A program made the translations under genes and the position numbers. Positions 35,785 through 59,531 of a DNA stretch of 64,000 nt are shown here, piece by piece; position 1 is the stretch's first letter, and each line of letters begins with the position of its first letter. The notes beneath the pieces were generated by a model. That model was not told the origin of the DNA. It saw only the letters and a program-made list of their open reading frames with translations, and made no database searches. The DNA is from a virus (lineage: Duplodnaviria; Caudoviricetes), in the IMG/VR virus record IMGVR_UViG_3300025913_000019; one strand, written 5' to 3'.

Positions 35785-35860
35785 GCTGTCTTAGCTCAGT
35801 TGGTAGAGCATCTGCCTTGTAAGCAGGAGGTCAAGGGTTCGAGTCCTTTAGGCAGCACCA
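35785..35860 (+). tRNA. tRNA-Thr(UGU)
   Basis: 76-nt canonical cloverleaf, loop CTTGTAA, GGTTCGAGTCC, encoded ACCA. Confidence 0.96.
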
Positions 35861-36339: not shown

Positions 36340-36519
36340 TCCTAGGCTCCAAAACCCTTCGGGGTAATAGCGGGAGACCGGGAGGCATGCCTCCCGGCAC
36401 CTATTCCGGGGGTGTCCAATGGGGGCCGCTAGTAGGGCGGGGCAAGGTACGAGACGCTGACGCGTTGCTTCCGAGCCCTGTGGCCAAACGCGCCAGGTTC
36501 GAATCCTGGAACCCGACCA
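36340..36519 (+). ncRNA. Structured RNA ending in T-arm plus ACCA (tRNA-like 3' end, no canonical cloverleaf)
   Basis: CCAGG-TTCGAAT-CCTGG-AACCCG-A-CCA; upstream hairpins. Confidence 0.5.
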
Positions 36520-36523
36520 ACCC

Positions 36524-36654
36524 GAGTGCAGAGCTACGGGCCGAGGACCATGGGCCGTAATGGCGGTCACCGAGAACAAGCGGGAAGAAGTTGGTCACCT
36601 GACGGAGACCAGACCGGCGATGCTTGCGCGGCCTCGGTTCGTAGCTCTGCACTC
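36524..36654 (+). ncRNA. Unknown RNA closed by a 23-bp stem
   Basis: 36524-36546 pairs with 36632-36654 (21 WC + 2 GU). Confidence 0.6.
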
Positions 36655-36686
36655 TTGTCCCCCAACCACAAACGAAGGTTCACCAC

Positions 36687-37067
36687 ATGAAGATCAAGCC
36701 CCGCAACGAGCACGTCGTCGTTCGCCGCATCCCCAGCCGTGAGAAGAGCAGCGGCATCATCATCCCGGGCCAGGAAACCGAGCGCGATCTCTTCGCCGTC
36801 ACCGCGGTGGGCCCCGGCGGCTTCACACCGGCCGGCACGCGTGCACCCATCGAGCTCGACGTCGGTCAGCCGATCGTTCCCGGCATGCTCGTCTTCGTCC
36901 GCCCCGGCGACTACGAGATGTTCGACTCGGACCCGAACAGCCCGGGCGACGAAAGCCTGCGCATGGTGATCCCGCAGTCGGCCATCATCGGCGTCGAGGT
37001 CGACGACAACGACCAGCCGCTGATGTTCGCCGAGCCCGCGCAGTCGATGATCGCGACCCTCAACTGA
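36687..37067 (+). CDS. groES: GroES-like co-chaperonin
   Basis: MKIKPRNEHVVVRR..SSGIIIPG..AVTAVGPG. Confidence 0.85.
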   Translation: MKIKPRNEHVVVRRIPSREKSSGIIIPGQETERDLFAVTAVGPGGFTPAGTRAPIELDVGQPIVPGMLVFVRPGDYEMFDSDPNSPGDESLRMVIPQSAIIGVEVDDNDQPLMFAEPAQSMIATLN

Positions 37068-37080
37068 CCAAGGAGCTGCC

Positions 37081-37380
37081 ATGAGCACAACCTGGAAGGA
37101 CGCGCTGGCGGACAAGCCGAGCGTCATCGATTTCGTGCAATCCATCGTCGACCAAGTTCCGACCACGGGCGGCGCCCAGGACGCATTCGAGATGGCGCTC
37201 AACGGCCTGGCGACCTTCGTGCCCGAAGAGATCCAGATCAAGGCCGACAAGTTCGACGCGCTGGTCGACGAAGGCGTCGACGAGTGGGCCGGCTACGAGT
37301 CCGCCATGGCCGAGTTCGAGGACGAGGACGGCGATGACGACTCAGATTCGGACGACGGCGACGAAGACGACGAGGACTGA
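37081..37380 (+). CDS. Small acidic protein
   Basis: SD AAGGAG; D/E tail. Confidence 0.7.
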   Translation: MSTTWKDALADKPSVIDFVQSIVDQVPTTGGAQDAFEMALNGLATFVPEEIQIKADKFDALVDEGVDEWAGYESAMAEFEDEDGDDDSDSDDGDEDDED

Positions 37381-37382
37381 CC

Positions 37383-37661
37383 ATGGGCTGGCGCTCGTGG
37401 TTCGGCCTCAAGGAGCCGGTCCGGTTCATGGATGAGAGCGACGAGAAGGTTCGTGGCGCCCTCACCCTGCTGTCCCAGCTCGGTAGCAACAACGTCCACT
37501 GGAACGACGTGGACGTGATGGCGACGGCGAAGGCCGCGCTGTTCGAGGAACCCAGGTACGCACGCGCGGGCCTGGAACGCATCGCTGCCGCGGTGTCGCC
37601 CGGTGATCTCTTCATCAACGGAGTTGACATCGGCCTCCTGGCCGAGCGCGGCTTGCAATGA
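37383..37661 (+). CDS. Hypothetical protein
   Basis: Coupled start. Confidence 0.6.
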   Translation: MGWRSWFGLKEPVRFMDESDEKVRGALTLLSQLGSNNVHWNDVDVMATAKAALFEEPRYARAGLERIAAAVSPGDLFINGVDIGLLAERGLQ

Positions 37662-37668
37662 GCAACGA

Positions 37669-37708
37669 AGGTACCCGGCACCTGGTTCGATCCCAGGGCC
37701 CGGTATCT
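37669..37708 (+). ncRNA. T-loop-capped minihelix
   Basis: AGGTACC/GGTATCT + GGC/GCC + CCTGG-TTCGATC-CCAGG. Confidence 0.35.
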
Positions 37709-37717
37709 CCGGCAGGG

Positions 37718-37832
37718 TGGAGAGTGACGAAATTGGTAGACGTGCTGCCTTGGCAAGGGTGGTGCCCCTCGGGTCTCGGCCGCCAACTGAGACAATGAGG
37801 ACCGCGTGCTGGTTCGAGTCCAGCCTCTCCAT
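37718..37832 (+). tRNA. Non-canonical type-II tRNA-like gene (GGC loop, about 43-nt variable arm, no encoded CCA)
   Basis: TGGAGAG/CTCTCCA acceptor, Leu-type D arm ACG-AAATTGGTAGA-CGT, T arm GCTGG-TTCGAGT-CCAGC. Confidence 0.6.
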
Positions 37833-37841
37833 TTCTCCGAA

Positions 37842-37850
37842 ACGGTAAAG
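37842..37850 (+). promoter_or_regulatory. Candidate phage promoter motif ACGGTAAAG
   Basis: Intergenic, before structured region. Confidence 0.55.
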
Positions 37851-37857
37851 AAGTAAC

Positions 37858-38075
37858 ATCGCGTTGCAGCGATAGGGCAAGCTGATCGTGCCCTGGTTTG
37901 CGCCTGACCAAATTCGGCGTTCGCGCTCGTAGTGGTCGGCCGTAGTTGACATGTGCCTGGCATGTCTGCGCCTAAGCACTCTGTGCACAGATTAGAGGCC
38001 CGCCGGGTTGGTTGCAGATCCTTGCCGGCGGCCACCTACATGTAGCTTGCGTGCCAGACACGCGAGCCTGATTCC
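37858..38075 (+). ncRNA. Candidate structured RNA
   Basis: Non-coding gap with several stems (37858-73, 37874-94, 37957-64/38050-57, 37997-38033). Confidence 0.4.
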
Positions 38076-38099
38076 CCAACCACAGCCTAGGAGCTGAAG

Positions 38100-38252
38100 A
38101 TGAAGAAGACCCTGTTCTCCGCCGCACTGCTGATCGCGGTCGCCCTCGGTGGCGTCGCCATGGCCCAGGATTCGACGCCGGACGGCTGCATGCCCGGCAA
38201 CGGCGGCTCGGCCCCCATCTGCACCCCGGGCACGGGCCCCGGCGGCAAGTAA
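38100..38252 (+). CDS. 50-aa secreted peptide with two Cys (missing from ORF track)
   Basis: SD AGGAG; MKKTLFSAALLIAVALGGVAMA|QDSTPDGCMPGNGGSAPICTPGTGPGGK. Confidence 0.7.
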   Translation: MKKTLFSAALLIAVALGGVAMAQDSTPDGCMPGNGGSAPICTPGTGPGGK

Positions 38253-38299
38253 AGATCAACGCAGCGAGGGCGAAAGAAGAGTCACCCGCAGTTGCAGTG

Positions 38300-38760
38300 A
38301 GAAGTCCCGCCTCCCCAGGGACGACGTAGTGTCCGAGCAATCGGGCGTGTGTCAAACCATAGGGAACATGGTCGTGTGTCGGCACTCGCCGACGAGAGTC
38401 TGAAGCTGACGGATGTTGGACGGGGGTTCGATTCCCCCCGGCTCCACCACTAGCGCCTGCGTACATGCGGGTGCTAGTGATGGGGCCGACCAGGTTTCGA
38501 CAGCGTTGCTGATGTGGAGGACGACGACTCGCGCGTATGGCCTAGTCTAGCTCAGCGTTACAGAGCCGACAGGGTACAAAACTAACTGCCAACGACGAGC
38601 AATTCGCTCAGGCCCTCGCGGCCTAAGCGCAGAACAGCTGCGGGTTCTACCTAGGCAACTAGGTGTGTACGCAGCCGGGCCGGACACAGCGGATAACCTC
38701 TGCTGTGTGTCTGAGTAAGCCGGGGCCGCAAGGTCCAGGTTAGGGACGGTGGGCTTCGGC
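38300..38760 (+). ncRNA. ssrA: Circularly permuted two-piece tmRNA (outer ends uncertain)
   Basis: Acceptor half ends CGGCTCCACCA at 38449; 5' half GGGGCCG starts 38482; G3-U70; tag ANDEQFAQALAA* at 38588-38626. Confidence 0.92.
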
Positions 38761-38805
38761 TCTCTGCTCCCGAACGTCCGGCCCACCCCTAACAATGAGG
38801 CATCG

Positions 38806-39201
38806 ATGACTGAACTGAAGACCGCACCGGTGGACACGGCCTACGCCGAGATGCAGGCCTACGTCGCCAAGTTGGAAGCCGCCGGCGTCAAGAGCGACAA
38901 CGGCTGGTACCCGATCATGACGGCTCCGTGGGAGATCGAGATCATGATCGGCCGCTGGCAGACGATCGGCAACAAGGAGCCGCAGTTCATCACCTGCAAG
39001 TCGAGCCAGGAGCACGACCCGGGCAACGAGTTCGAGGGCGAAGCCGCCTACGACTACTGGGCGACCGATGACGACACAGCAGGCGTGGTCGACTCGGCGA
39101 TGCCTGATGTCTGGCGTCCCATCTTTCCCCAGCCTGCGTTCATCAACACCTACGAAGACCAGCTGGCCGAACAGGCCGCGGCTGCCGAGGGAGAAGGCTG
39201 A
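38806..39201 (+). CDS. Hypothetical acidic protein
   Basis: SD GAGG; start refined. Confidence 0.7.
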   Translation: MTELKTAPVDTAYAEMQAYVAKLEAAGVKSDNGWYPIMTAPWEIEIMIGRWQTIGNKEPQFITCKSSQEHDPGNEFEGEAAYDYWATDDDTAGVVDSAMPDVWRPIFPQPAFINTYEDQLAEQAAAAEGEG

Positions 39202-39449
39202 TGGGAGTCGTCGTGTTTCCTGGCCACGAAGGTTCGGCGCTCGAAGCTCTGGCAAAGGCGAAGACCGCGGTCGACGAGATCGGCCCGGATGCACGGATCT
39301 TCATCTTCGTCCGCGATCCGAAGAAGCAGGCCACGCGCTCTCTGAGTTCGGAGTTCAATACCATCGATCTCGCAGTCGTGACCGCCTACGTCAACGCATA
39401 TTGCTCGGATCACATGATGCGAGCGCAGGGCGAGGACGGCGACGATTAG
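39201..39449 (+). CDS. Hypothetical protein
   Basis: TGATG overlap. Confidence 0.65.
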   Translation: MGVVVFPGHEGSALEALAKAKTAVDEIGPDARIFIFVRDPKKQATRSLSSEFNTIDLAVVTAYVNAYCSDHMMRAQGEDGDD

Positions 39450-39506
39450 TACAACGAGCCCCGGGTCGAGCAGTCGATGCCGGGGCTACCCATTTCTGGA
39501 GCACAC

Positions 39507-39935
39507 ATGATCGAGCACCACACCAAAGACGGTGAAGTACCACCGGTTCGTTTTCCTCGGCGCATGCTGCAGCTGTGGAGCCTGGGTCGTGCTCAGCGTC
39601 GACCCGACTGGCTCGCGCGCTTTCGACTCCGTCCTGACCACGAGCAGATCGATCTCGAATGGGGTCTCTTCCAGGTCTTCCACGATCTCGGCATCACCAA
39701 CCTGCAGACCGCGAAGGAATGGGCGCTCCTGCAGTACAACAGGCCCGAGTGCTTCGATGCATTTCCGATCATGGGCACTCGTGACATGTGCTGGCAGCTG
39801 AGCTGGTACGTCGAGACGTTGGAGGGTCGCTACCCCGAGGACATCAGCGCCCAGTACGCGCCGAACTTCTACCTGAACTCCAGGTACGGGACCGACATCT
39901 ACTCCTACATCTTCCATCCGCAAGCGAGGACATGA
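39507..39935 (+). CDS. Hypothetical protein
   Basis: SD GGAG. Confidence 0.65.
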   Translation: MIEHHTKDGEVPPVRFPRRMLQLWSLGRAQRRPDWLARFRLRPDHEQIDLEWGLFQVFHDLGITNLQTAKEWALLQYNRPECFDAFPIMGTRDMCWQLSWYVETLEGRYPEDISAQYAPNFYLNSRYGTDIYSYIFHPQART

Positions 39936-40408
39936 TGGCACACGAGTATCACATCGACGCCCTGTTCGGCGCGCACCTGGACGCGGCAGTCATCGCGACC
40001 TTGGGCAAGCCCTGGCGCATTGAAGTCTTCTGCGTCCGCTACCCGCACCCGGAGCGCCACATGACTGCGCGAGTCGTCAATGAGCACGGTCGCGTCATCA
40101 ACTTCAATCACGACAACCGGTTCCATCGTGACTGGCTGCACGCCGGTTACCTCATGGAGACCGGGAAGATCAGCATCTCCTGGCCTCAAGATCCGGTCAA
40201 GGGTCGACCGTGTGCCTGGGGTACGCCCGAGTCCGAGACGAGGTCATTCGGTCGGACCATGCCGGAGGCGATCACGCGTGCGTACCTGAAGCAGCACACG
40301 AAGTCCCCGTTCGTCGAGCTCGACCAGAAACTCGAGCTCTACATACCCTACCAAGACGACCTGCTGGCGCAGCTGGCGGGTGTCACCGAAGTGAAGAAGG
40401 ACTACTGA
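39932..40408 (+). CDS. NinX/DUF2591-like phage protein
   Basis: LDAAV..DWLHAGYLMETGKISI..GRTMPEAITRAYL. Confidence 0.55.
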   Translation: MMAHEYHIDALFGAHLDAAVIATLGKPWRIEVFCVRYPHPERHMTARVVNEHGRVINFNHDNRFHRDWLHAGYLMETGKISISWPQDPVKGRPCAWGTPESETRSFGRTMPEAITRAYLKQHTKSPFVELDQKLELYIPYQDDLLAQLAGVTEVKKDY

Positions 40409-40409
40409 C

Positions 40410-40901
40410 ATGAATCCGACTCGCCGTGGTTTCCTAGGTGCGATGCTGGCTGCGGCGGCCGCACCTGCAATCGTCAAGGCCGACTCGTTGATGAAGGTCG
40501 TGGTGCCCAAGCACGTGGCTGACGGGCACTTCATCACGATCTACGACTACAAGATCGGCAACGGTCCCACCACGTTCGACAAGCAGTTCAAGTCGGACGT
40601 GGTCGATGCGTACACGCGTGGCGATTGCCTGCAGCAGCAGTACGCGGACGTCATTGAGCGCGTCATGCTCGACGAAGACCAGGCGCCACTCATCTCGGGT
40701 GAACTCGGCTACGTGAATGGATTCACGGTCGTCGTCAGCGAGATCGACAAGTCGAATGTCGTCTTCGACCGCGGCGTCACCCAGCCCATGTTCATGGGTG
40801 CGAAGCGTGGGCCCAAGCCAGCACGTCGGCTCGGACGCAATCAGATCGAGTCGCTGTTCGACAAGGCACGCGACCTCGCCTATCTCAAGATCAGGAGCTG
40901 A
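40410..40901 (+). CDS. Twin-arginine (Tat) leader protein 1
   Basis: MNPTRRGFLGAMLAAAAAPAIVKADSLMK. Confidence 0.7.
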   Translation: MNPTRRGFLGAMLAAAAAPAIVKADSLMKVVVPKHVADGHFITIYDYKIGNGPTTFDKQFKSDVVDAYTRGDCLQQQYADVIERVMLDEDQAPLISGELGYVNGFTVVVSEIDKSNVVFDRGVTQPMFMGAKRGPKPARRLGRNQIESLFDKARDLAYLKIRS

Positions 40902-40903
40902 CC

Positions 40904-41203
40904 ATGCAGTATCCGCGAATCGTGATCGACGGCACGGACTGCCAGACACCGAGTGGTGATCTCAAGTCGGGCTGGATCATCACCTACGAGGTGACGCTCG
41001 ACGCTCAGGGTCGTGAGCAGCGCAGAGAGAAGAAGCGTCAATGGGCGCAGGACCCGAAGCCCGTTGTTTTCGACAACGGTATGACCTCGCAACAACATGC
41101 GGCGGCTGTCGCACGTGGCGAGAATCCCGGACCCCTGGTCAAGACAGGTATCTTCTATCCGCACAAGATGCTGGAGCTGATGCCAACTGAAGGAGTGCAC
41201 TGA
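40904..41203 (+). CDS. Hypothetical protein
   Basis: SD AGGAG. Confidence 0.6.
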   Translation: MQYPRIVIDGTDCQTPSGDLKSGWIITYEVTLDAQGREQRREKKRQWAQDPKPVVFDNGMTSQQHAAAVARGENPGPLVKTGIFYPHKMLELMPTEGVH

Positions 41204-47146: not shown

Positions 47147-48093
47147 CGAGCAACTACACCCACAGCGCTACGTTCGCGTCGCTGAAGGGCATCAAGGAAG
47201 AGCTGACCGAGAACTACACGACGTTCCAGCTGCTGACGACCCTCGACTACTTCATCGAGAACGCGATCGATCCGATCATCAGCGCCCATCCGGACCTGAC
47301 CGACGTGTACTTCTCCAAGGTCATCGCCTACCAGTTCGACAACCCGAACGTGAAGTGCAGCCGCAATGAGAAGGCGTCGCTGCCGCAACTTCTGTTCAAC
47401 GCGGTGACGACGCAGGGACGACGCAAGCGGGAGTTCCAGCGCAAGATGCTGCTCAACCGCGGGCTGCTCTTCGGACTCGTCTCGGTCTTCCTCAAGACTG
47501 TAAATACGTATCGGAAGTTGCACAGCCCGCACGTGAAGTTGCGTCGGGCTCAGCGACTGGTACTTCGTCAGCTTGCCGAGGAGCGGACGGGCTCGTCCCA
47601 CATCTTCCCTGCGATCCTGCAGGTGGAGTTCTGGATTCAGCACGCCTACCACTTCAAGGAACTGATCGTCCAGAAGTACACGCGCCTGGCGTCGAACCAG
47701 GCGCGCAAGACATACATGGACGTCAACTGCGACAAGAGCCTGGACGACATCATCCAGGTGTACATGGTCTTCCTCGCCAAAGCGATCGACCGATGCGACA
47801 GTCGGCAGGGCGTGCTGACGGAGTACATCAAGTACTGGTTCTACTCGGCGAAGTCCGAGATCATGAAGGAGGTAGCCAAGGACGGGCTCAACACGAGTTA
47901 CGATCAGCTGCTCGAATCGGGCATCGACTCGCAGTCGGTTGATCCTGACACCCAGTTCGAGGCGGCGCAGCACATCTGTGCGACCGCCAAGGGACTCGAT
48001 CCAACGGGAGCGTATCGGTTTGCGCTCCACATCCCCGAGCACTACAGCAACGCGGATCTCCGCAAGCTGCAACTTTTCACCACAACCAACTGA
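47143..48093 (+). CDS. Divergent sigma70-like transcription factor
   Basis: DDIIQVYMVFLAKAIDRCDSRQGVLTEYIKYWFYSA aligns with region 2 DLIQEG..L.KAVDKF..RG..FSTYA.WWIRQA. Confidence 0.55.
   Translation: MTSNYTHSATFASLKGIKEELTENYTTFQLLTTLDYFIENAIDPIISAHPDLTDVYFSKVIAYQFDNPNVKCSRNEKASLPQLLFNAVTTQGRRKREFQRKMLLNRGLLFGLVSVFLKTVNTYRKLHSPHVKLRRAQRLVLRQLAEERTGSSHIFPAILQVEFWIQHAYHFKELIVQKYTRLASNQARKTYMDVNCDKSLDDIIQVYMVFLAKAIDRCDSRQGVLTEYIKYWFYSAKSEIMKEVAKDGLNTSYDQLLESGIDSQSVDPDTQFEAAQHICATAKGLDPTGAYRFALHIPEHYSNADLRKLQLFTTTN
47497..47505 (+). promoter_or_regulatory. Internal candidate promoter ACTGTAAAT
   Basis: Formed by rare ACT GTA AAT codons upstream of SSB/UvsX. Confidence 0.45.
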
Positions 48094-48101
48094 GAGAACA
48101 C

Positions 48102-49682
48102 ATGGATCTCGACGACGCAAAAACAAGCCGCGGTGGCGACCGCGTTCCCGGCATGGCCGACCTCGTGGAGGTCTTCAAGTTCCCGCCGAAGAAGTGGGCG
48201 CCGGTTCGTCTGCTGAAGGGCATCGTCTCGACCGCGGGCTACTGGGTCAAGACCACGTCGAAGGACGGGAAGAAGACGGCGTTCTACACGGTGTGCCCGA
48301 GCTACGATCCGGCGACGCAGGAGCGCGACTCCACGAAGTTCGACCCGTGGCGCGACCTCCAGTCGGCCGAGCAGGCCAAGCTCGAAGCCGACGGGGTGGA
48401 CAAGGCCAAGTGGCGCGACAAGATGCATGTCCAGTACTCGCAGTACTACTGGATCAACGCCATCATCCGCGCGCTGCAGAAGGCCGAGCCGGCGTCGCTG
48501 CCGAAGCACACGAAGAAGGAAGCCAAGTCGGGCTTCAAGGAGAAGGAGAGCGACAGCTGGACGCCGGTGCGTGTGCTCCGCGTCAGCCGCTCGCTGGCCG
48601 AGAAGATCAAGAAGCTCAAGGGCCTCAACATCGTCGAGTCGAGCTCCGGCGCCTCGAAAGCGTTCCCGCTCGATGACCCGAAATTCGGCCGCGATCTCCG
48701 CATCCAGCACGACCCCGACGTGTCGCCGTCCGAGCAGTACAGCCTCTCGATGGGCGACAAGCGCACGAAGCTGACCGAGGAAGAGCTGGCCTACCTGACG
48801 TGGGACCTGGAAGGCGCGGCCGAGAAGTGCTCGGTGACGTCGAGCGAGGACGAAGTCCTGCGCGACTACGAGTCCTGGGCCAAGCGCAACGGCATCAAGA
48901 CCAAGATCAAGTCGAAGAAGGCGAAGGCCAAGGACGACGACGAGGACGAAGACGCCGACGACTCGGATGATGACGAGGACGACGAAGACGAGAAGCCAAA
49001 GTCGAAGTCGAAGAAGGCCGCGGCCGCGAAGTCCAAGTCGAAGAAGACCGACGACGAGGACGATGAAGACGACTCGGACGACGGCGAGGATGATGACCTC
49101 GACGAGGACGACGAGGACGAGAAGCCCAAGGGCAAGAAGGCAGCTGCGAAGAAGGCGCCGGCCAAGAAGAAGGCCAAGTCGGACGACGACGAGGACGACG
49201 ACTTCGATGATGAAGACGACGACGGCGATGACGACGAGGACGAGGACGAGAAGCCCAAGTCGAAGTCGAAGAAGGCGTCGCCGGCCAAGGGCAAGGCCAA
49301 GAAGAAGTCGGACGACGAAGACGACCTCGATGAAGACGACGAGGACTCCGATTCGGACGACGACGAGGACTCGGACGACTTCGATGACGACGAGGACGAG
49401 AAGCCCAAGTCGAAGAAGGGTGCCAAGGCCAAGCCGGCTGCGAAGAAGGCGCCGGCCAAGAAGAAGGCCAAGGACGAGGACGAAGACGACGACTTCGATG
49501 ATGAAGACGAAGACGACGACTCGGATTCGGACGACGACGAGGACGACGAGGACGAGAAGCCCAAGTCGAAGTCGAAGAAGCCTGCTGCGAAGAAGGCACC
49601 GGCGAAGAAGACGGCGGCCAAGGGCAAGAAGAAGCCCGCCGACGACGAAGACGAAGACGAAGACGACTTCGACGACGAGTAA
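48102..49682 (+). CDS. Single-stranded DNA-binding-like protein with very long D/E and K/A block tail
   Basis: About 240-aa folded N-terminus (YYWINAII..VRVLRV..KIKKL..FGRDLRI), acidic end, adjacent to UvsX. Confidence 0.6.
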   Translation: MDLDDAKTSRGGDRVPGMADLVEVFKFPPKKWAPVRLLKGIVSTAGYWVKTTSKDGKKTAFYTVCPSYDPATQERDSTKFDPWRDLQSAEQAKLEADGVDKAKWRDKMHVQYSQYYWINAIIRALQKAEPASLPKHTKKEAKSGFKEKESDSWTPVRVLRVSRSLAEKIKKLKGLNIVESSSGASKAFPLDDPKFGRDLRIQHDPDVSPSEQYSLSMGDKRTKLTEEELAYLTWDLEGAAEKCSVTSSEDEVLRDYESWAKRNGIKTKIKSKKAKAKDDDEDEDADDSDDDEDDEDEKPKSKSKKAAAAKSKSKKTDDEDDEDDSDDGEDDDLDEDDEDEKPKGKKAAAKKAPAKKKAKSDDDEDDDFDDEDDDGDDDEDEDEKPKSKSKKASPAKGKAKKKSDDEDDLDEDDEDSDSDDDEDSDDFDDDEDEKPKSKKGAKAKPAAKKAPAKKKAKDEDEDDDFDDEDEDDDSDSDDDEDDEDEKPKSKSKKPAAKKAPAKKTAAKGKKKPADDEDEDEDDFDDE

Positions 49683-49700
49683 CCGTCACCCGTGAGCGCC

Positions 49701-49735
49701 AAGGGCCCGCTGGATTCTGGTCCAGCGGGCCCTTT
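49701..49735 (+). terminator. Intrinsic terminator
   Basis: AAGGGCCCGCTGGA/TCCAGCGGGCCCTTT. Confidence 0.7.
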
Positions 49736-49760
49736 CCATTTCAGACTCTCAAGGATAGCA

Positions 49761-51353
49761 ATGGCTACCAAGACTCCCACGAAGCCAGTGAAAAAGGCGG
49801 CTGCGAAGCCTGCGGTCAAGAAGCCGAGCCCGAAGGCGCGTGCTGCCGCGAAGGAAGAAGCCACGAAGGCGATCGCCAAGGCGAAAGCGAAGCCGGTCAA
49901 GAAGGCGCAGGTCGAGGCCGACGAGCCGCCGCAGCGCAAGAAGAAGGGTGTGGTCGGCCTCGACCTCATCTCCATGTACAGCGAGACCATGGACGTGATC
50001 GCGAAGCGGCAAGGCTTCGAGTCCTCCAGCCTGGAAGCAAGCCCGCCCATGAGCACGGGCCTGCTGACGGTCGACATGCTGCTGGGCGGCGGTGCGCGTC
50101 CGTGTATGCTGACCGGCGCGGGCAACGAGCAATGCGCGAAGACGACCCTGGCGCTGGTCGCCATGGCGAACTCGATCAAAGAGCAGATCCCGGTCATCGC
50201 CTTCATCGACTACGAGGGCTCGACCAAGAACTCGAAGCCTTACGTGGCATCGATCCTCAAGACCTGCGGCATCAACATGTCGGTCGACCAGCTCTTCGGG
50301 AAGAAGGACAAGAAGACCGGCAAGTGGATCACGCCGCCGCGCGTCCGGTACCGCTCCGAGACCATCCTGGAGAAGTTCTACGACTGGATGTCGGAGATCC
50401 TTCGCGACCTGCCGGACAAGCGCTTCGTCGAGAACGAGTGGTGGCTCATCTTCGAGGACAACAAGAAGAAGGGCATGCGTGCCAAGCTCGGCGACAACAT
50501 CGACCAGGGCATGACCCGCAAGTACGGCAACGGCCTGTGGGTCAAGGCCGACGACGGCAAGATGCAGGGCATCGTCTTCGTCGACTCGTACACGGCGATG
50601 CAGCCGAAGATCAAGGACGAGGAAGAGATCGGCAACCAGTTCTCGGTCAAGGCCTCGGCGTTCTCGAAGCAGCTCGAGCGCATCAAGGGCCGCATGGCCG
50701 AGAAGATGGTCATGGTGTGGGGCCTGAACCACCTGCGCCAGAACCCCGGCCAGATGTACGGCCCGAAGGAAACCGAGAAGGGCGGCGAAGCCCTGAAGCA
50801 GTTCTCCGATGTCCGCATCCGCCAGACCTCCAGGTCCGACTCCGCGCATCCGTTCAAGGCCGGCATGGTCACGAACAAGAAGTTCAAGGAAGTCGAAGCC
50901 TCGGTCGAGCACAAGGGCACGCAGGACAAGTACCGCCTGGTCCACCTGAAGACGGTGAAGAACAAGCTCTGGACTCCGGAGCGCGAGACCTTCATCCGCA
51001 TTTGGGTCGAGGACGGCGCCGGCGAAGCTCGTGGCATCGACCCGGTCTTCGACACGCTGCTGTTCCTGAAGGAGACCGGCCAGATCAGCGGCAGCCGCAA
51101 GGCCTTCAAGCTGAACTTCGGCGATCAGGGCGTTTCCAAGCCCATCACGTGGCAGGACCTGAAGCTGTGGATTCTCGGCTCCAAGGAAGAGATGGTCGCC
51201 ATGTCGAAGAAGGCTGGCTACAAGCCGATGAACCTGCGCTCCCTCTGCTTCAAGCAGATCAAGAGCGGCGTTGCCGAGGACAAGTATGTCGAGGCCATGA
51301 ACGGCAAGGCCAGCGGTGGCGAGGACGAAGACGACGAGGACAGCGAGGACTGA
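49761..51353 (+). CDS. uvsX: RecA/UvsX-like recombinase
   Basis: MSTGLLTVDMLLGGG, GNEQCAKTT, IVFVDS, LNHLR, KGGEALKQFSDVRI, GID. Confidence 0.9.
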   Translation: MATKTPTKPVKKAAAKPAVKKPSPKARAAAKEEATKAIAKAKAKPVKKAQVEADEPPQRKKKGVVGLDLISMYSETMDVIAKRQGFESSSLEASPPMSTGLLTVDMLLGGGARPCMLTGAGNEQCAKTTLALVAMANSIKEQIPVIAFIDYEGSTKNSKPYVASILKTCGINMSVDQLFGKKDKKTGKWITPPRVRYRSETILEKFYDWMSEILRDLPDKRFVENEWWLIFEDNKKKGMRAKLGDNIDQGMTRKYGNGLWVKADDGKMQGIVFVDSYTAMQPKIKDEEEIGNQFSVKASAFSKQLERIKGRMAEKMVMVWGLNHLRQNPGQMYGPKETEKGGEALKQFSDVRIRQTSRSDSAHPFKAGMVTNKKFKEVEASVEHKGTQDKYRLVHLKTVKNKLWTPERETFIRIWVEDGAGEARGIDPVFDTLLFLKETGQISGSRKAFKLNFGDQGVSKPITWQDLKLWILGSKEEMVAMSKKAGYKPMNLRSLCFKQIKSGVAEDKYVEAMNGKASGGEDEDDEDSED

Positions 51354-51354
51354 C

Positions 51355-52023
51355 ATGATCGAGACTCTAGTTGGTGCCAGTCAGGCCCAGCTGGATCATG
51401 AGGACGCCCTCACCCGAGGGCTCCTCACGGTCGCGTACTCTGATCCCGCGGCACCCAAGGCTGAGAAGCCGAAGGTCAGCCGCTTCGGGACACGTCAGAG
51501 TCGCTTCTGGTTCCGGCTGGAGACACTGACCGAAGAAACGAACCGCCGCAAGGCGCAGTTCAAGCCGAAGGAGCTCGAGCACATCGACTCCGCGGTCGTC
51601 GCTCGCCTCAGGTCCTTCACGAAGGAGATCCCACTCGACCTCAAGACCCGAATCGAGCAGGTACGCGAGTTCTTCCTCAAGGAGTTGTCGCCGCTGACCA
51701 TGGCGTCGTCGGGCGGCGCACTGCAGGCCAAGGAGGTTGCCGAGCGCATGTTCAAGACCGAGGTTGACCCGGCCTTGTTCTCGCGCTTCGACAACATGGT
51801 CAATCGCGCCGCAACCATCAAGGTTGCCCTGTTCGTCAAGTCCTATTTTGATTTGCCGGACGAGTACATCTCGTCGCTGCTCGGACCACAGCAGCACAAT
51901 CCTGACTCGGACTTCCAGAAGCTGCAAGCGATGATGAAGCAGCTCGTCGAATCGCAGACCGAGCATGGACGGCAACTCAAGAAGGTGGCAACCAATGTCT
52001 CACAACGAAAACCTCGACCGTAA
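51355..52023 (+). CDS. Hypothetical protein
   Basis: TGACATG junction. Confidence 0.7.
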   Translation: MIETLVGASQAQLDHEDALTRGLLTVAYSDPAAPKAEKPKVSRFGTRQSRFWFRLETLTEETNRRKAQFKPKELEHIDSAVVARLRSFTKEIPLDLKTRIEQVREFFLKELSPLTMASSGGALQAKEVAERMFKTEVDPALFSRFDNMVNRAATIKVALFVKSYFDLPDEYISSLLGPQQHNPDSDFQKLQAMMKQLVESQTEHGRQLKKVATNVSQRKPRP

Positions 52024-54100
52024 GGTCGCAGCCATGTTCCCCGGGCTCATGCCCGGGGGTTACGTTCCGGAGCACGAACCCGCTTCGGAAGACTCGACCA
52101 TCCTGGTGCCGAAGAAGCACTACGATGACGACTTCGACATCGTCAAGCTGATGGCCGAGTCGAAGGACCCGGACACGGGTCTGCTGCGCGATCTGAAGAT
52201 CGACGACCGCGACCTCGCGTCTGCCGGCTCGTACTACGACTACTGCTTCAACATCATCGGCAAGGATGCGCACCCGCCGTGGATCGTGCAGATGTGGATC
52301 GGCCTCATGCTGTTCGCAGAGGTGTGCCCGTGCTGCTCGAACAAGAAGTGGTTGAACCTCGAGTGGTTCGTTGCCAACGTGCCGAAGCAGAAGCCCAGCT
52401 TCGACATCAAAGAAGGTATCGAGATCCTGCATCACGGCAAGTGCCCGAAGTGCAAGCGCAAGAAGTGGGAGCTCATCACCGACCACGGGCTGCACAACTT
52501 CACCGAACTCGTGAACGTGCTGGGTCAGCGCTCGGGCAAGTCGTCCAGTGCTGCATCGTACGCCAGCTACCACACGCATCGGATGCTGAAGTTCCCTCGA
52601 CTCGCCGACTTGACCACGTCGATGCAGAAGTCGACCGAGCTGACGACTACGTTCGTGAGCTTGACCTACGACAAGGCTTTCGCGCTGCTGTGGACGCCGT
52701 ACCGCAACATTATCAACGAGAGCGCGTGGTTCGACCAGTACCACGAGATGCTGGACTACTACGGCAACAAGTACGGCATGGAGCTGTACCGGAAGAAGGA
52801 CGAGTTCATCAAGTACTTCCATCGTGGGCTGAAGATGTACCCCACGAACCCGAAGTCGCAGACCCTTCGCGGTGACACGCGTGTCATGGCGCTGGTTGAC
52901 GAGTTGGGCCTGTTCCCGCTGCCGACCGGCAACGACGAGGAAGATGAGAAGTCGGATCGCGCGAACAGCGACGAAGCCCACAAGTCGCTGACCAACTCGC
53001 TGGTGACCGTGCAGGCGATTCAGAACCGCCTGCTGTCGGAAGGCCTGAACTGCCCGCCGGCATTGATGCTCGGCGTCTCCAGCCCGATCTCGATCCGCGA
53101 CAAGGTCATGCGTCTGCTCGCCGACTCTCGGACCGAGGAAGGCAAGAAGTACATCCTGGGCGTCAACCTGCCGACGTGGCACGTCAACCCCAGCATCGAG
53201 CGTGACACGCCGATCATCGCGCTGGCGTACGCACGCAATGCTGAGAAGGCAGAACGTGACTTCGGCGCCAACCCGCCGCGAGTCCACCAGACGTACATCA
53301 AGCCGGAGCAGGTGCCGCACAAGCTGTTCGCCGGCAAGAACACGCACATCCTGCGCCACCACTACGACCAGCCGGGTCTCGTCTACGGCAAGCTGCAGCA
53401 GGTCTACACGCCCCGATTCCCGTCGGTGGTGTGCCTCGATGCCGGCCACTCGAACAACAGCTTCACGCTGGTGGGTGCGCACTTCGACTTCGTGCGGCAG
53501 AAGACCGTGATCTCGACGATCCTCGAAGTCATGGCACACGACGGTCGCAAGGTCGACTTCAACCTCGTCTACACCAACGTGATCCTGCCGGTCATGAAGG
53601 ACCTGAACGCGGTGGCGTTGATCGCTGACCAGTGGCAGTCGCTCGACATCCTGAGCCGTGCACGTGCCGACATGGGCAAGGCGCTCATCAATGGCAAGGA
53701 GAAGGATCGGTGTCTGACCAAGCAGTACAGCCCGCGCCCGAAGGACTTCGAGTCGCTGGTGTCGATGCTTGAGAACGGCAGCTACGAGCTTCCCTTCCTG
53801 TCGGAAGCGGACTACAAGCACGTGTGCACCGAGTACATCGAGTTCAAGACGCTGCGGGAGCAGCCGACCAAGCATCTGCTGCTGCAGATGCTGACCGTGG
53901 CCGACGGCGGGTTCAACAAGTGCCCGACCAAAGGCCCTGGCTTCACCGACGACATCTTCCGCGCTACGGTGCTGACGACCCTGATCCATTTGCCCGCGGT
54001 TATGGAGCGACTGGTCGAGGCCAACAACAGCTACGTGAAGGAAGCAAAAGCGATGCCCATGCCGGCATTCCTGGGTCGCTCGGCAGTGCATTATCGCTGA
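51995..54100 (+). CDS. terL: Terminase large subunit
   Basis: Walker A GQRSGKS, Walker B ALVDE, motif SSP, nuclease CLDAG..DD; N-terminal CxxC pairs. Confidence 0.85.
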   Translation: MSHNENLDRKVAAMFPGLMPGGYVPEHEPASEDSTILVPKKHYDDDFDIVKLMAESKDPDTGLLRDLKIDDRDLASAGSYYDYCFNIIGKDAHPPWIVQMWIGLMLFAEVCPCCSNKKWLNLEWFVANVPKQKPSFDIKEGIEILHHGKCPKCKRKKWELITDHGLHNFTELVNVLGQRSGKSSSAASYASYHTHRMLKFPRLADLTTSMQKSTELTTTFVSLTYDKAFALLWTPYRNIINESAWFDQYHEMLDYYGNKYGMELYRKKDEFIKYFHRGLKMYPTNPKSQTLRGDTRVMALVDELGLFPLPTGNDEEDEKSDRANSDEAHKSLTNSLVTVQAIQNRLLSEGLNCPPALMLGVSSPISIRDKVMRLLADSRTEEGKKYILGVNLPTWHVNPSIERDTPIIALAYARNAEKAERDFGANPPRVHQTYIKPEQVPHKLFAGKNTHILRHHYDQPGLVYGKLQQVYTPRFPSVVCLDAGHSNNSFTLVGAHFDFVRQKTVISTILEVMAHDGRKVDFNLVYTNVILPVMKDLNAVALIADQWQSLDILSRARADMGKALINGKEKDRCLTKQYSPRPKDFESLVSMLENGSYELPFLSEADYKHVCTEYIEFKTLREQPTKHLLLQMLTVADGGFNKCPTKGPGFTDDIFRATVLTTLIHLPAVMERLVEANNSYVKEAKAMPMPAFLGRSAVHYR

Positions 54101-57418: not shown

Positions 57419-57598
57419 ATGTTCACACGCCACCACCGTCCGACGCCCTCTGTTCTGGAGGCGCGACGTGAACGTCACCACCGCAAACAAGCGCTGCTCC
57501 GTGTGAGGCTGCGCGAAGAGTTTGTCGCTTTGATCGATGCCTTCCGCTCGGATCGTGTCGAAGATCGCTTCGATACTCCACGCAGCCTATACCTCTGA
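57419..57598 (+). CDS. Small basic hypothetical protein
   Basis: SD GAGGT. Confidence 0.4.
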   Translation: MFTRHHRPTPSVLEARRERHHRKQALLRVRLREEFVALIDAFRSDRVEDRFDTPRSLYL

Positions 57599-57614
57599 CA
57601 GCATAGGAAGACCC

Positions 57615-59531
57615 ATGTTCCCCAAGAATCGTGTGACCGCCGTGACCTCCAAGGGCGAGATCAAGACCACCGCAGACATCCCGGCGCAGAATCAAGTGCA
57701 GGCCTCGATCGGCGGCTCCAGCGGCACGTTCGGCACCTCGAACGTGAGCACGCAGTTCTACGCGGCCTCGCAATACAACTACCTGTTCTCCGGTCTGCTG
57801 CCTGCGACCCCGGACATCCCGGACTCGACGGCGCTGCAGTACTTCTACCGCGATATGTACCTGCACGACAACGTCGCAGGTTCGGCCATCGACATCCAGA
57901 GCGTGTTCCCGTTCAGTGACTGGGAGCTGCTGGGTCTCGAAGACCACGAGAAGGACGTGTTCGATTCGGCGCTGGCTCGCCTGAACCTGCAAGAGCTGAT
58001 GCCGCAGCTCAGCGTCGCGTACCTGACCGACGGCTTCTTCTGCGGCTCGCTCATCTACGACGCGGGTGCGAAGAACTTCATGGACATCCTGATCCACGAC
58101 GCGCTGCAGTGCGGCGTGAGCCCGAGCCCGCTCAACAACGTCGACCCGACTGTTCGCGTCAGCGTCAGCGGTCCGACGCTGCGCTTCCTCGACAGCGCCA
58201 CGGACTACGCCAAGGCCTACATCCGAACCATGCCGAAGGCGTTCGTGAATCTGCTGCGCGAGGGCTCGTTCGTCCTCGACCCGATCACGACGCTGTGGCT
58301 GGGCCGCCGCGGTCTCACGGATCGCGCGTACCAGTCGTACCTGCATCGCATCCTGCCGATGTACCTGATCGAGAAGACGATGTTCCGCGGCACGCTGATC
58401 GAAGCGCAGCGCCGCCAACGCGCCATGAGCCACATCACGGCCGGCGACGACATCTGGACTCCGACTGGTCAGGAGCTGCAAGCTCTGGTCCAGCAGTTCA
58501 TGGATGCCGAGAAGGACCCGCTCGGCGGCTGGCTGTCGACCCGCAACGCGGTGCAAGTCCAGGACCTTCGCCCCGGTGGCGACTTCTGGAAGTGGACCGA
58601 CATGGTCGACGTCATGAACAACTACAAGTACCGTGGCCTCGGCATCAGTGAAGCGCTGCTCAGCGGTGACGCGTCGTATGCAGCGGCCGAGTCGGCGTAC
58701 TCGACGTTCCTGGAGTCGACCAACGCGTATCGCACGCACCTGACCAACTCCATCTTCTACAAGAAGCTGTTCCCGCTCATCGCGATCTCGAACGAGATGT
58801 TCCGTGACCCGGCGAAGCGGAAGAAGACCGACAGCCTGGTCGACTTCATGTTCAACGCGTCGAACCGGCAGAACCTGAAGATCCCTGTCCTGCACTGGCA
58901 CAAGGACCTGACCGCGAAGTCGGAAGAGAACATGATGGACATGCTCGAGAAGGTCGAGCAGCACGGCGTGCCGGTGCCGCTGAAGATGTGGCTCGCGGCC
59001 GCCGGCGTCGACAAGGACACGCTGATCCGTGACGCGCGCGAGAACGAAGAGATCCGCAAGGAAATCTCGAAGTACATGAAGCTGCCTGACAACGTCGCGA
59101 ACAACGGCGAAGGCGGCGATGACATGAGCGGCGACGGCTCGGGCAACGACGAGTTCGGTGACGGTGGTGGCTCGGGTGACGACAGCCTGGCGCCGACGCA
59201 AGGTCAGAAGGCCGACGCGACTCAGCTGGCATCGGCTCTCCGGTCGAAGGTGCTGACGTCTACGTCTGCGAAGACCGGCCTCGGTAACTGGACGAAGGGC
59301 ATCCTGAACCGCGAGTTCACGCACGAGGAGTTCACCGAGACCGTGACCGGGAAGAAGAAGCACATCCCGTCGGCGGCACAGCCGCGCATGAAGGCGCGCG
59401 ACATGAATGCCCGCATCGCACGGCTGGCCGCGCAGGTCGAAGCGAGCCCGCACTATCGTCGCAAGCTCGCGGCCGAGAACCAGAAGCGCGGCATCGGTAT
59501 GCTGCGTGGTCTCCCCGGCACCGGCCTCTGA
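57615..59531 (+). CDS. Portal protein
   Basis: FYRDMYLHDNVAGSAIDI (T4 gp20-like N-terminal pattern); size and synteny with TerL. Confidence 0.7.
   Translation: MFPKNRVTAVTSKGEIKTTADIPAQNQVQASIGGSSGTFGTSNVSTQFYAASQYNYLFSGLLPATPDIPDSTALQYFYRDMYLHDNVAGSAIDIQSVFPFSDWELLGLEDHEKDVFDSALARLNLQELMPQLSVAYLTDGFFCGSLIYDAGAKNFMDILIHDALQCGVSPSPLNNVDPTVRVSVSGPTLRFLDSATDYAKAYIRTMPKAFVNLLREGSFVLDPITTLWLGRRGLTDRAYQSYLHRILPMYLIEKTMFRGTLIEAQRRQRAMSHITAGDDIWTPTGQELQALVQQFMDAEKDPLGGWLSTRNAVQVQDLRPGGDFWKWTDMVDVMNNYKYRGLGISEALLSGDASYAAAESAYSTFLESTNAYRTHLTNSIFYKKLFPLIAISNEMFRDPAKRKKTDSLVDFMFNASNRQNLKIPVLHWHKDLTAKSEENMMDMLEKVEQHGVPVPLKMWLAAAGVDKDTLIRDARENEEIRKEISKYMKLPDNVANNGEGGDDMSGDGSGNDEFGDGGGSGDDSLAPTQGQKADATQLASALRSKVLTSTSAKTGLGNWTKGILNREFTHEEFTETVTGKKKHIPSAAQPRMKARDMNARIARLAAQVEASPHYRRKLAAENQKRGIGMLRGLPGTGL

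Follow-up and report, generated by a model that had tools for sequence, protein, structure and literature searches.

Between positions 38,300 and 38,760 of a 64,000-nt stretch of viral DNA (IMG/VR record IMGVR_UViG_3300025913_000019; the whole stretch is called the window here), an unannotated RNA gene has the appearance of a tmRNA encoded as two pieces in permuted order. tmRNA is the RNA that rescues stalled ribosomes, and its occurrence in phage DNA raises the question of whether such a gene is genuine, which lineage of two-piece tmRNAs it belongs to, and what it might do during infection. With good confidence, the locus can be regarded as a genuine and selectively maintained ssrA gene in circularly permuted form, of the two-piece type known from betaproteobacteria, carried by an uncultured soil and rhizosphere jumbo myophage resembling phiRSL1 and BcepSauron, for which a role in host-dependent trans-translation is proposed.

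Identification of the Permuted tmRNA Gene

The identity of the gene is supported by independent detectors. ARAGORN calls a permuted tmRNA at 38357-38717 on the plus strand, with the tag ANDEQFAQALAA followed by a stop codon. The Rfam model RF04321 (tmRNA_permuted) recognises the same locus with 87.5 bits (E = 2e-15), above its gathering threshold of 47 bits. In the search with the tRNA/tmRNA clan of Rfam, the model RF01850 (beta_tmRNA) gives 69.7 bits (E = 6e-21), which lies below its gathering threshold of 84 bits, and it is nevertheless the top scorer among the three subtype models. Since the score falls under the RF01850 threshold, the gene is classed, from its sequence, as beta-like and divergent rather than as a canonical member of that family. 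The agreement of ARAGORN, RF04321 and RF01850 on a tmRNA is far beyond chance. Thus, the proposal of an earlier note that the phage encodes a circularly permuted tmRNA is borne out by both ARAGORN and Rfam, the tools that it had suggested as a check, and every coordinate that it gave, including those of the spacer hairpin, P2a and the tag reading frame, agrees with the letters.

Architecture of the Two Pieces

The defining feature of the locus, read directly from the sequence, is its permuted order: the 3' half of the tRNA-like domain comes first, followed by a short spacer and then by the 5' half. The predicted acceptor piece (38368..38449, plus strand) contains the 3'-side strands of P2, the T arm, the 3' strand of the acceptor stem, the discriminator A and an encoded CCA. 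Its 5' end is uncertain: pairing in the RF01850 alignment begins at 38370, and an insertion found in a sister phage (described below) abuts 38367/38368. The T arm (38422..38438) is formed by GGGGG (38422-26), the loop TTCGATT (38427-33) and CCCCC (38434-38), giving a 5-bp stem. It is followed by the acceptor 3' end (38439..38449), composed of CGGCTCC (38439-45), the discriminator A (38446) and CCA (38447-49).

The intervening spacer (38450..38481, plus strand) has a length of 32 nt, contains no open reading frame and is predicted to be removed at maturation. Both direct reading and the minimum free energy (MFE) fold of the precursor give a hairpin with strands at 38448-60 and 38467-79, consisting of 13 pairs (two of them G-U) closed by the loop GTACAT, and the spacer ends in GAU immediately 5' of G1. 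These properties are common in the family. Among 46 non-redundant permuted copies (that of the window and 45 others), the spacer usually forms a hairpin of 8-12 bp with GAU before G1, the GAU|GGGG context is typical, P2a consists of 6-7 pairs in most copies, and acceptor positions 5-7 covary with Watson-Crick pairing.

The predicted coding piece (38482..38717, plus strand) starts with GGGGCCGACCAGGTTTCGACAG, and its 3' end is uncertain; its extent is drawn from ARAGORN, Rfam and the MFE fold. It begins with the acceptor 5' strand GGGGCCG (38482-88), which completes an acceptor stem of 7 bp. In this stem, G3 (38484) pairs with U70 (38443), which, together with the discriminator A and the CCA end, corresponds to alanine identity. 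The D-loop analogue (38489-38500) is followed by the 5'-side strand of P2a, where CAGCGTT (38501-07) pairs with GATGTTG (38412-18) of the acceptor piece in seven of seven positions, three of them G-U. This pairing, which is also given by the Rfam structure lines, has the same pattern as in other phage copies. Distal P2 lies at 38523-29, and a 3' hairpin domain occupies the downstream portion of the coding piece.

Two regions depart from the beta consensus. Firstly, the acceptor piece contains a strong local hairpin, GTCGGC-ACTC-GCCGAC (38378..38393), found both by direct reading and in the precursor MFE fold, which competes with the weak distal P2 pairing that the consensus has there; the RF01850 alignment flags non-canonical pairs in the same stretch. 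Secondly, the PK1 region (38530..38575) is expanded to 35 nt, in comparison to 12 nt in the beta consensus, and appears as an insertion relative to RF01850 and as an alignment gap in all other copies. An irregular 11-bp hairpin at 38540-38575 is predicted there by MFE only, and covariation gives it no support because the only relatives are near-identical. When the two pieces were cofolded without constraints, the acceptor stem and the T arm formed but the consensus P2 did not, and the P2 helices described here are therefore taken from the Rfam alignments.

The tag reading frame (38588..38626, plus strand) starts at the alanine resume codon GCC, continues through 12 codons encoding ANDEQFAQALAA, and ends at an in-frame TAA. 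The tag has a hydrophobic end in LAA, with an ALAA degron, and a QA insertion sets it apart from the 10-residue beta tags. Downstream of the gene, direct reading reveals a long imperfect hairpin (38740..38793, plus strand) between the tmRNA and the next gene, which starts at 38806. Lacking a U-tract, this hairpin may serve in processing or stabilisation instead of acting as a classic terminator.

Phage Context and Habitat

The window is phage DNA, as indicated by PHROG matches on the same strand as the tmRNA to a terminase large subunit (51965-54100), a portal protein (57537-59531), a UvsX-like recombinase, a single-stranded DNA-binding protein (SSB) and a sigma factor, as well as to a peptidase and an ATP-dependent protease-like gene. 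In terminase sequence, Ralstonia phage phiRSL1 has 54% identity to the window, Burkholderia phages BCSR5, BcepSauron and BcepSaruman have 50-52%, and Achromobacter phage Motura has 45%; all of them are jumbo myophages of Burkholderiales with genomes of 220-265 kb. Because the terminase is closest to this group, the host is inferred to be a betaproteobacterium. The nearest IMG/VR record is a 91-kb contig estimated to be 39% complete, which implies a full genome of roughly 230 kb.

Metagenomes of several rhizosphere and soil studies contain DNA of the locus. A blastn search of the locus against 50,697 deposited phage records gave no match, which indicates that a close cultured relative is missing from that set, and megablast of 20 kb returned only a 36-nt match to Caulobacter phage BL47, which is not meaningful.

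Directly upstream of the tmRNA are a GroES/Cpn10-like gene (36687-37067), a gene for a small protein with a motif resembling the RecBCD inhibitor gp5.9 of T7 (37081-37380) and a 50-residue open reading frame with a signal peptide (38100-38252). At the E-value limit applied, Pfam gave no match for the small neighbouring reading frames. A tRNA-Thr(TGT) gene of 76 nt is located nearby (35785-35860), and it was the only Rfam match over this "RNA island", even at E = 1 or below; at the tmRNA locus itself, no Rfam riboswitch was matched. Between the window and G001, an IMG/VR record of a sister phage in which the call spans 90 nt, identity falls to 67% at the tRNA-Thr site, with flanks at about 96%, which points to an apparent turnover of tRNA genes in this island. 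Three putative T-arm-bearing tRNA-like elements, at 36360-36519, 37533-37705 and 37717-37833, were considered and set aside, as Rfam found nothing in them at E = 1 or below. ARAGORN calls tRNAs there only at a 90% threshold combined with an intron search, with "introns" of 62-87 nt or 21 nt.

Assembly Integrity and Conservation

The possibility that the locus is an assembly chimera or host contamination, raised by the earlier note as something that would overturn its reading, was checked and rejected. G001, an independent assembly of a phage 97% identical to that of the window, carries the same gene in the same place. Contigs from independent runs on rhizosphere and soil material bridge the tmRNA and both flanks (X2 over 36500-40642 and X5 over 37806-41000). 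Independent contigs show no differences over 38418-38591 and 38432-38695, which cover the tRNA-like domain and the tag. Identical junctions in G001 and in contigs of several independent runs and studies, along with a uniform G+C content across the window, argue against a chimera, and the probability left for this explanation is negligible.

The comparison with G001 also bears on whether the gene is maintained. Within 38368-38717 there is one difference in 350 nt, in comparison to 3.3% divergence in the surrounding 11 kb, a rate that predicts about 11.6 differences (Poisson P ~1e-4). This suggests selection on the tmRNA gene, which is likely to be purifying. The signal is suggestive rather than proof, because divergence is uneven, and conservation equal to that of the tmRNA is reached by about 7% of the 350-nt windows that the shared region contains. 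The tag reading frame is identical in G001.

These data can be weighed against the view that the gene is a non-functional passenger, namely a host gene that was captured recently or is decaying, or a remnant of an integration site. The score below the RF01850 cut-off and the atypical PK1 region would fit such a relic. On the other hand, the gene is complete instead of being a 3' fragment, it is more conserved than its flanks, and its tag reading frame is intact and conserved. Neither an integrase nor an att-like partial copy was seen, and the search for a donor described below indicates that capture was not recent. A passenger is therefore very improbable.

In addition, the population is polymorphic for an insertion of 114-115 nt directly 5' of the acceptor piece, present in G001 (L002:1386-1499) and in the strains of runs X3 and X5. 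In G001, it is placed at window position 38367/38368 and consists of a degenerate tRNA-like element, called by ARAGORN as tRNA-Phe AAA only at a relaxed threshold, and a small hairpin.

Relationship to Known Two-Piece tmRNAs

The earlier note left it unsettled whether a permuted form had already been described in phages, and the literature answers this positively. Buchholz et al. (2022) described the two-piece ssrA of the OM43 phage Melnitz and, screening 18,146 phage genomes with ARAGORN, obtained 53 two-piece tmRNAs, of which 50 came from marine or aquatic phages (PMC9004378). Entries marked "Permuted" in their Table S1 include Caulobacter phages CcrSC and CcrBL9, Synechococcus phage S-CBWM1, Stenotrophomonas phages Mendera and Moby, and Streptomyces phage BRock; Ralstonia and Burkholderia phages are not mentioned in that table (PMC9004378). 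A tmRNA database paper of 2025 contains 79 unique bacteriophage tmRNA sequences (PMC11915505), and the genome paper of phage phiCbK makes no mention of tmRNA (PMC3556154). Two-piece tmRNA genes of phages are thus both published and annotated, and the copy in the window is a sound annotation and not a discovery. It is, nevertheless, a divergent copy in a phage group and a habitat with no earlier record of such genes.

The two-piece form of Caulobacter goes back to Keiler et al. (2000), and the betaproteobacterial form is the "third lineage" of Sharkady and Williams (2004), both as cited in PMC9004378. The core of the window's gene is 55-65% identical to beta-type copies in general. With the bacterial beta-type of RF01850, it shares the gene order, the spacer hairpin, the tRNA-like domain, P2a and a tag of the ANDExFA..LAA type. 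However, bacterial members score 160-169 bits with RF01850, in contrast to 69.7 bits for the window, and their cores are only 55-59% identical to it. They encode 10-residue tags such as ANDENFALAA rather than 12 residues, they have a PK1 of 12 nt instead of 35 nt, and they have the distal P2 pairing where the window has its local hairpin; additionally, the window's gene is borne by a phage.

Among phages, close parallels are found in Stenotrophomonas phages. The copies in DLP_6 (vB_SmaS-DLP_6), a phage from soil, and Marzo, whose copy is annotated as "tmRNA" in GenBank, are likewise of the beta-type, with RF01850 scores of 103.7 and 94.6 bits. The group of DLP_6, Marzo, Moby and Mendera, the last three belonging to Menderavirus, has tags longer than usual (ANDDSFAPMAIAA; VAANDDSYTVRIAA). 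These phages nevertheless represent other lineages, with genomes of about 160-168 kb and the tmRNA located inside tRNA clusters, and their copies are 59-62% identical to the window's core.

Other systems are more distant. Melnitz and the pelagimyophages provide the precedent of a complete permuted tmRNA in a lytic myophage, for which the same functional hypotheses have been discussed, but their copies are of the alphaproteobacterial type, marine, low in G+C and accompanied by a 3' glutamine riboswitch (PMC9004378). Jumbo siphophages of Caulobacter (CcrSC and CcrBL9, with BL47 verified here at 73.9 bits with RF04321) also combine a jumbo phage with a permuted tmRNA, but the BL47 copy is only 50% identical to the window's core and has a 21-residue tag, and these siphophages infect an alphaproteobacterial host. 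Mycobacteriophages of the Bxz1 group and DS6A resemble the window in having phage-encoded RNAs derived from ssrA, but the Bxz1-group tmRNAs are one-piece and non-permuted, the DS6A RNA lacks a tag reading frame, and the hosts are actinobacteria (Hudson et al. 2014, PMC4131195).

The significance of the locus is correspondingly limited. A correct annotation is supplied for an unannotated RNA gene of an uncultured soil jumbo phage, and the range of phage two-piece tmRNAs, mostly marine or aquatic according to PMC9004378, is extended to a high-G+C rhizosphere phage of the phiRSL1 kind. The 12-residue tag, being specific to the phage, could be used in mass spectrometry as a marker for protein tagging by phage tmRNAs during infection. 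The knowledge of tmRNA or of phages in general is not altered by the finding.

Possible Origin of the Gene

The complete genomes of phiRSL1, BCSR5, BcepSaruman and Motura carry neither a permuted nor a standard tmRNA. As all four of these cultured relatives are without it, the gene was gained within the sub-branch of the window's phage. In a BLAST search of 401 Burkholderiales genomes, no close full-length relative was found; the best match was 77% over 126 nt, and most matches covered only a generic 32-nt segment of the T arm and acceptor. The absence of a close donor among these genomes suggests that capture was not recent.

A scan with an exact pattern, requiring the same acceptor stem in permuted order, found two kinds of loci. 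The first consists of canonical beta-type genes on contigs that look phage-like (L005 and L008). The second is a clade of "extra" permuted copies in bacteria, located at L009:1045-1375 on the minus strand in Caldimonas mangrovi, at L007:1147-1477 on the plus strand in a metagenome-assembled genome (MAG) of a betaproteobacterium, and at approximately 7223-7560 of L006 in a Burkholderiaceae MAG. The extra copies are 77-80% identical to each other. Those of C. mangrovi and the betaproteobacterial MAG encode the non-degron tags ANDSIYLKRA and ANADIYLKWA, respectively, and both genomes also carry a standard one-piece tmRNA (204 and 194 bits). The copy in L006 has no ARAGORN call, and its genome, which is incomplete, yielded no standard tmRNA above the cut-off. 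The window's tmRNA shares its acceptor stem and a P2 motif with the extra copies that have non-degron tags in Burkholderiales chromosomes. A prophage origin of the bacterial extra copies was considered and rejected, as their neighbourhoods consist of ordinary chromosomal genes. Just upstream of the permuted copy in the betaproteobacterial MAG (L007:502-951) is a release-factor-like gene of the baeRF_family12/Host_attach type.

A search with one narrow pattern yielded 51 IMG/VR viral contigs with permuted genes, 50 of them called by ARAGORN, and the copies in Stenotrophomonas and Caulobacter phages were verified as well. A wider scenario can be drawn, in which a beta-type two-piece lineage circulates among phages of hosts that have a one-piece tmRNA, as in the Stenotrophomonas phages, and one phiRSL1-like branch gained a divergent copy, maybe tuned, for example, against RNA-cleaving defences. 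This scenario is speculative and unlikely. As a separate observation, some phage permuted tmRNAs have predicted tags of 25-30 residues, such as AEKTSKFETVKVSMGKGFRFGSADRAVALA; these very long predicted tags are those of IMG/VR loci L048, L052, L058-L061, L076, L078, L086 and L087.

Proposed Function during Infection

Following established tmRNA biology (Keiler et al. 2000, as cited in PMC9004378), a sequence of events can be proposed for this RNA. Transcription of the gene would take place together with its co-oriented neighbours or next to them. RNase P of the host would then cut 5' of G38482 and 3' trimming would halt at the encoded CCA (38449), releasing the 32-nt spacer hairpin. The resulting acceptor piece of about 82 nt and coding piece of about 240 nt would be held together by the 7-bp acceptor stem, P2a and distal P2. 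Host AlaRS would charge the tmRNA by means of G3-U70, and host SmpB and EF-Tu would bring it to ribosomes stalled on broken mRNAs, with compatibility with the host AlaRS and SmpB being assumed. Translation would resume at GCC 38588 and add ANDEQFAQALAA, whose ALAA end would route the product to host proteases. The net effect would be an extra capacity for ribosome rescue and recycling during infection. For this phage, we infer transcription, processing, charging, tagging and benefit by analogy with known systems.

The dependence on host factors, proposed by the earlier note, is upheld, as SmpB was found neither in the window (tblastn) nor in G001 (PF01668), both of which are partial genomes. 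This result is consistent with the use of host factors, and it can also be turned towards a different role, in which the phage RNA is a decoy or inhibitor that titrates host SmpB or competes with the host tmRNA, blunting host trans-translation; lacking a phage SmpB, as far as these partial genomes show, the RNA must share the host pool. Such a decoy role was proposed for the RNA of mycobacteriophage DS6A, which consists of the tRNA-like domain only (Hudson et al. 2014, PMC4131195), and the divergence of the P2 and PK1 regions in the window would agree with it. A decoy, however, does not need a resume codon, a 12-codon reading frame, a stop codon and an ALAA degron, all of which are complete and perfectly conserved between the strains. 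This argues against a decoy, which we regard as quite improbable, and leaves host-dependent rescue as the preferred role.

A more specific purpose for this rescue, suggested by the earlier note, would be counter-defence, according to which the tmRNA is kept to clear ribosomes stalled by host abortive-infection nucleases or toxins that cleave mRNA or tRNA, rather than for general rescue. The region also holds a tRNA gene, the GroES-like gene and the motif resembling the gp5.9 RecBCD inhibitor, and the absence of a tmRNA from the four cultured relatives marks the gene as an accessory gain. However, no analysis linked a defence or anti-defence gene to the tmRNA, the tag is a normal degron, and nothing separates counter-defence from general rescue. 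This more specific purpose is accordingly considered unlikely, and rescue of a general kind remains the preferred reading.

Expression Signals and Minor Observations

A promoter and terminator scan found no sigma-70 promoter and no intrinsic terminator on the plus strand, and the tmRNA probably arises by processing of a longer transcript with the same orientation. In metatranscriptomes, the only matches were the generic 32-nt tRNA-like tail, belonging to other organisms, and two low-depth contigs (runs X23 and X24) from plant-associated samples. These contigs are about 93% identical over 38522-38633, the part of the coding piece extending from PK1 to the tag, and they are divergent upstream. 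The tmRNA of a relative may therefore be present in these RNA libraries.

The heptamer GTAAAGA occurs nine times on the plus strand (5655, 27575, 31341, 34892, 35133, 37845, 38249, 41757 and 43328) and not at all on the minus strand, in comparison to about two copies expected per strand. A role as promoter of the tmRNA is not supported, since the copy upstream of the gene coincides in part with a stop codon and is changed to GTAAAGC in the sister phage. Five copies are intergenic and have the extended form (A/G)ACTGTAAAGA, and the motif may mark phage promoters or gene junctions.

Elsewhere in the window, the SSB-like gene (48102-49682) is internally repetitive in its 3' part, at approximately 48900-49680, giving multiple self-similar BLAST alignments of 70-73% between the window and G001. 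The AT skew is very high (0.435) in 48001-50000.
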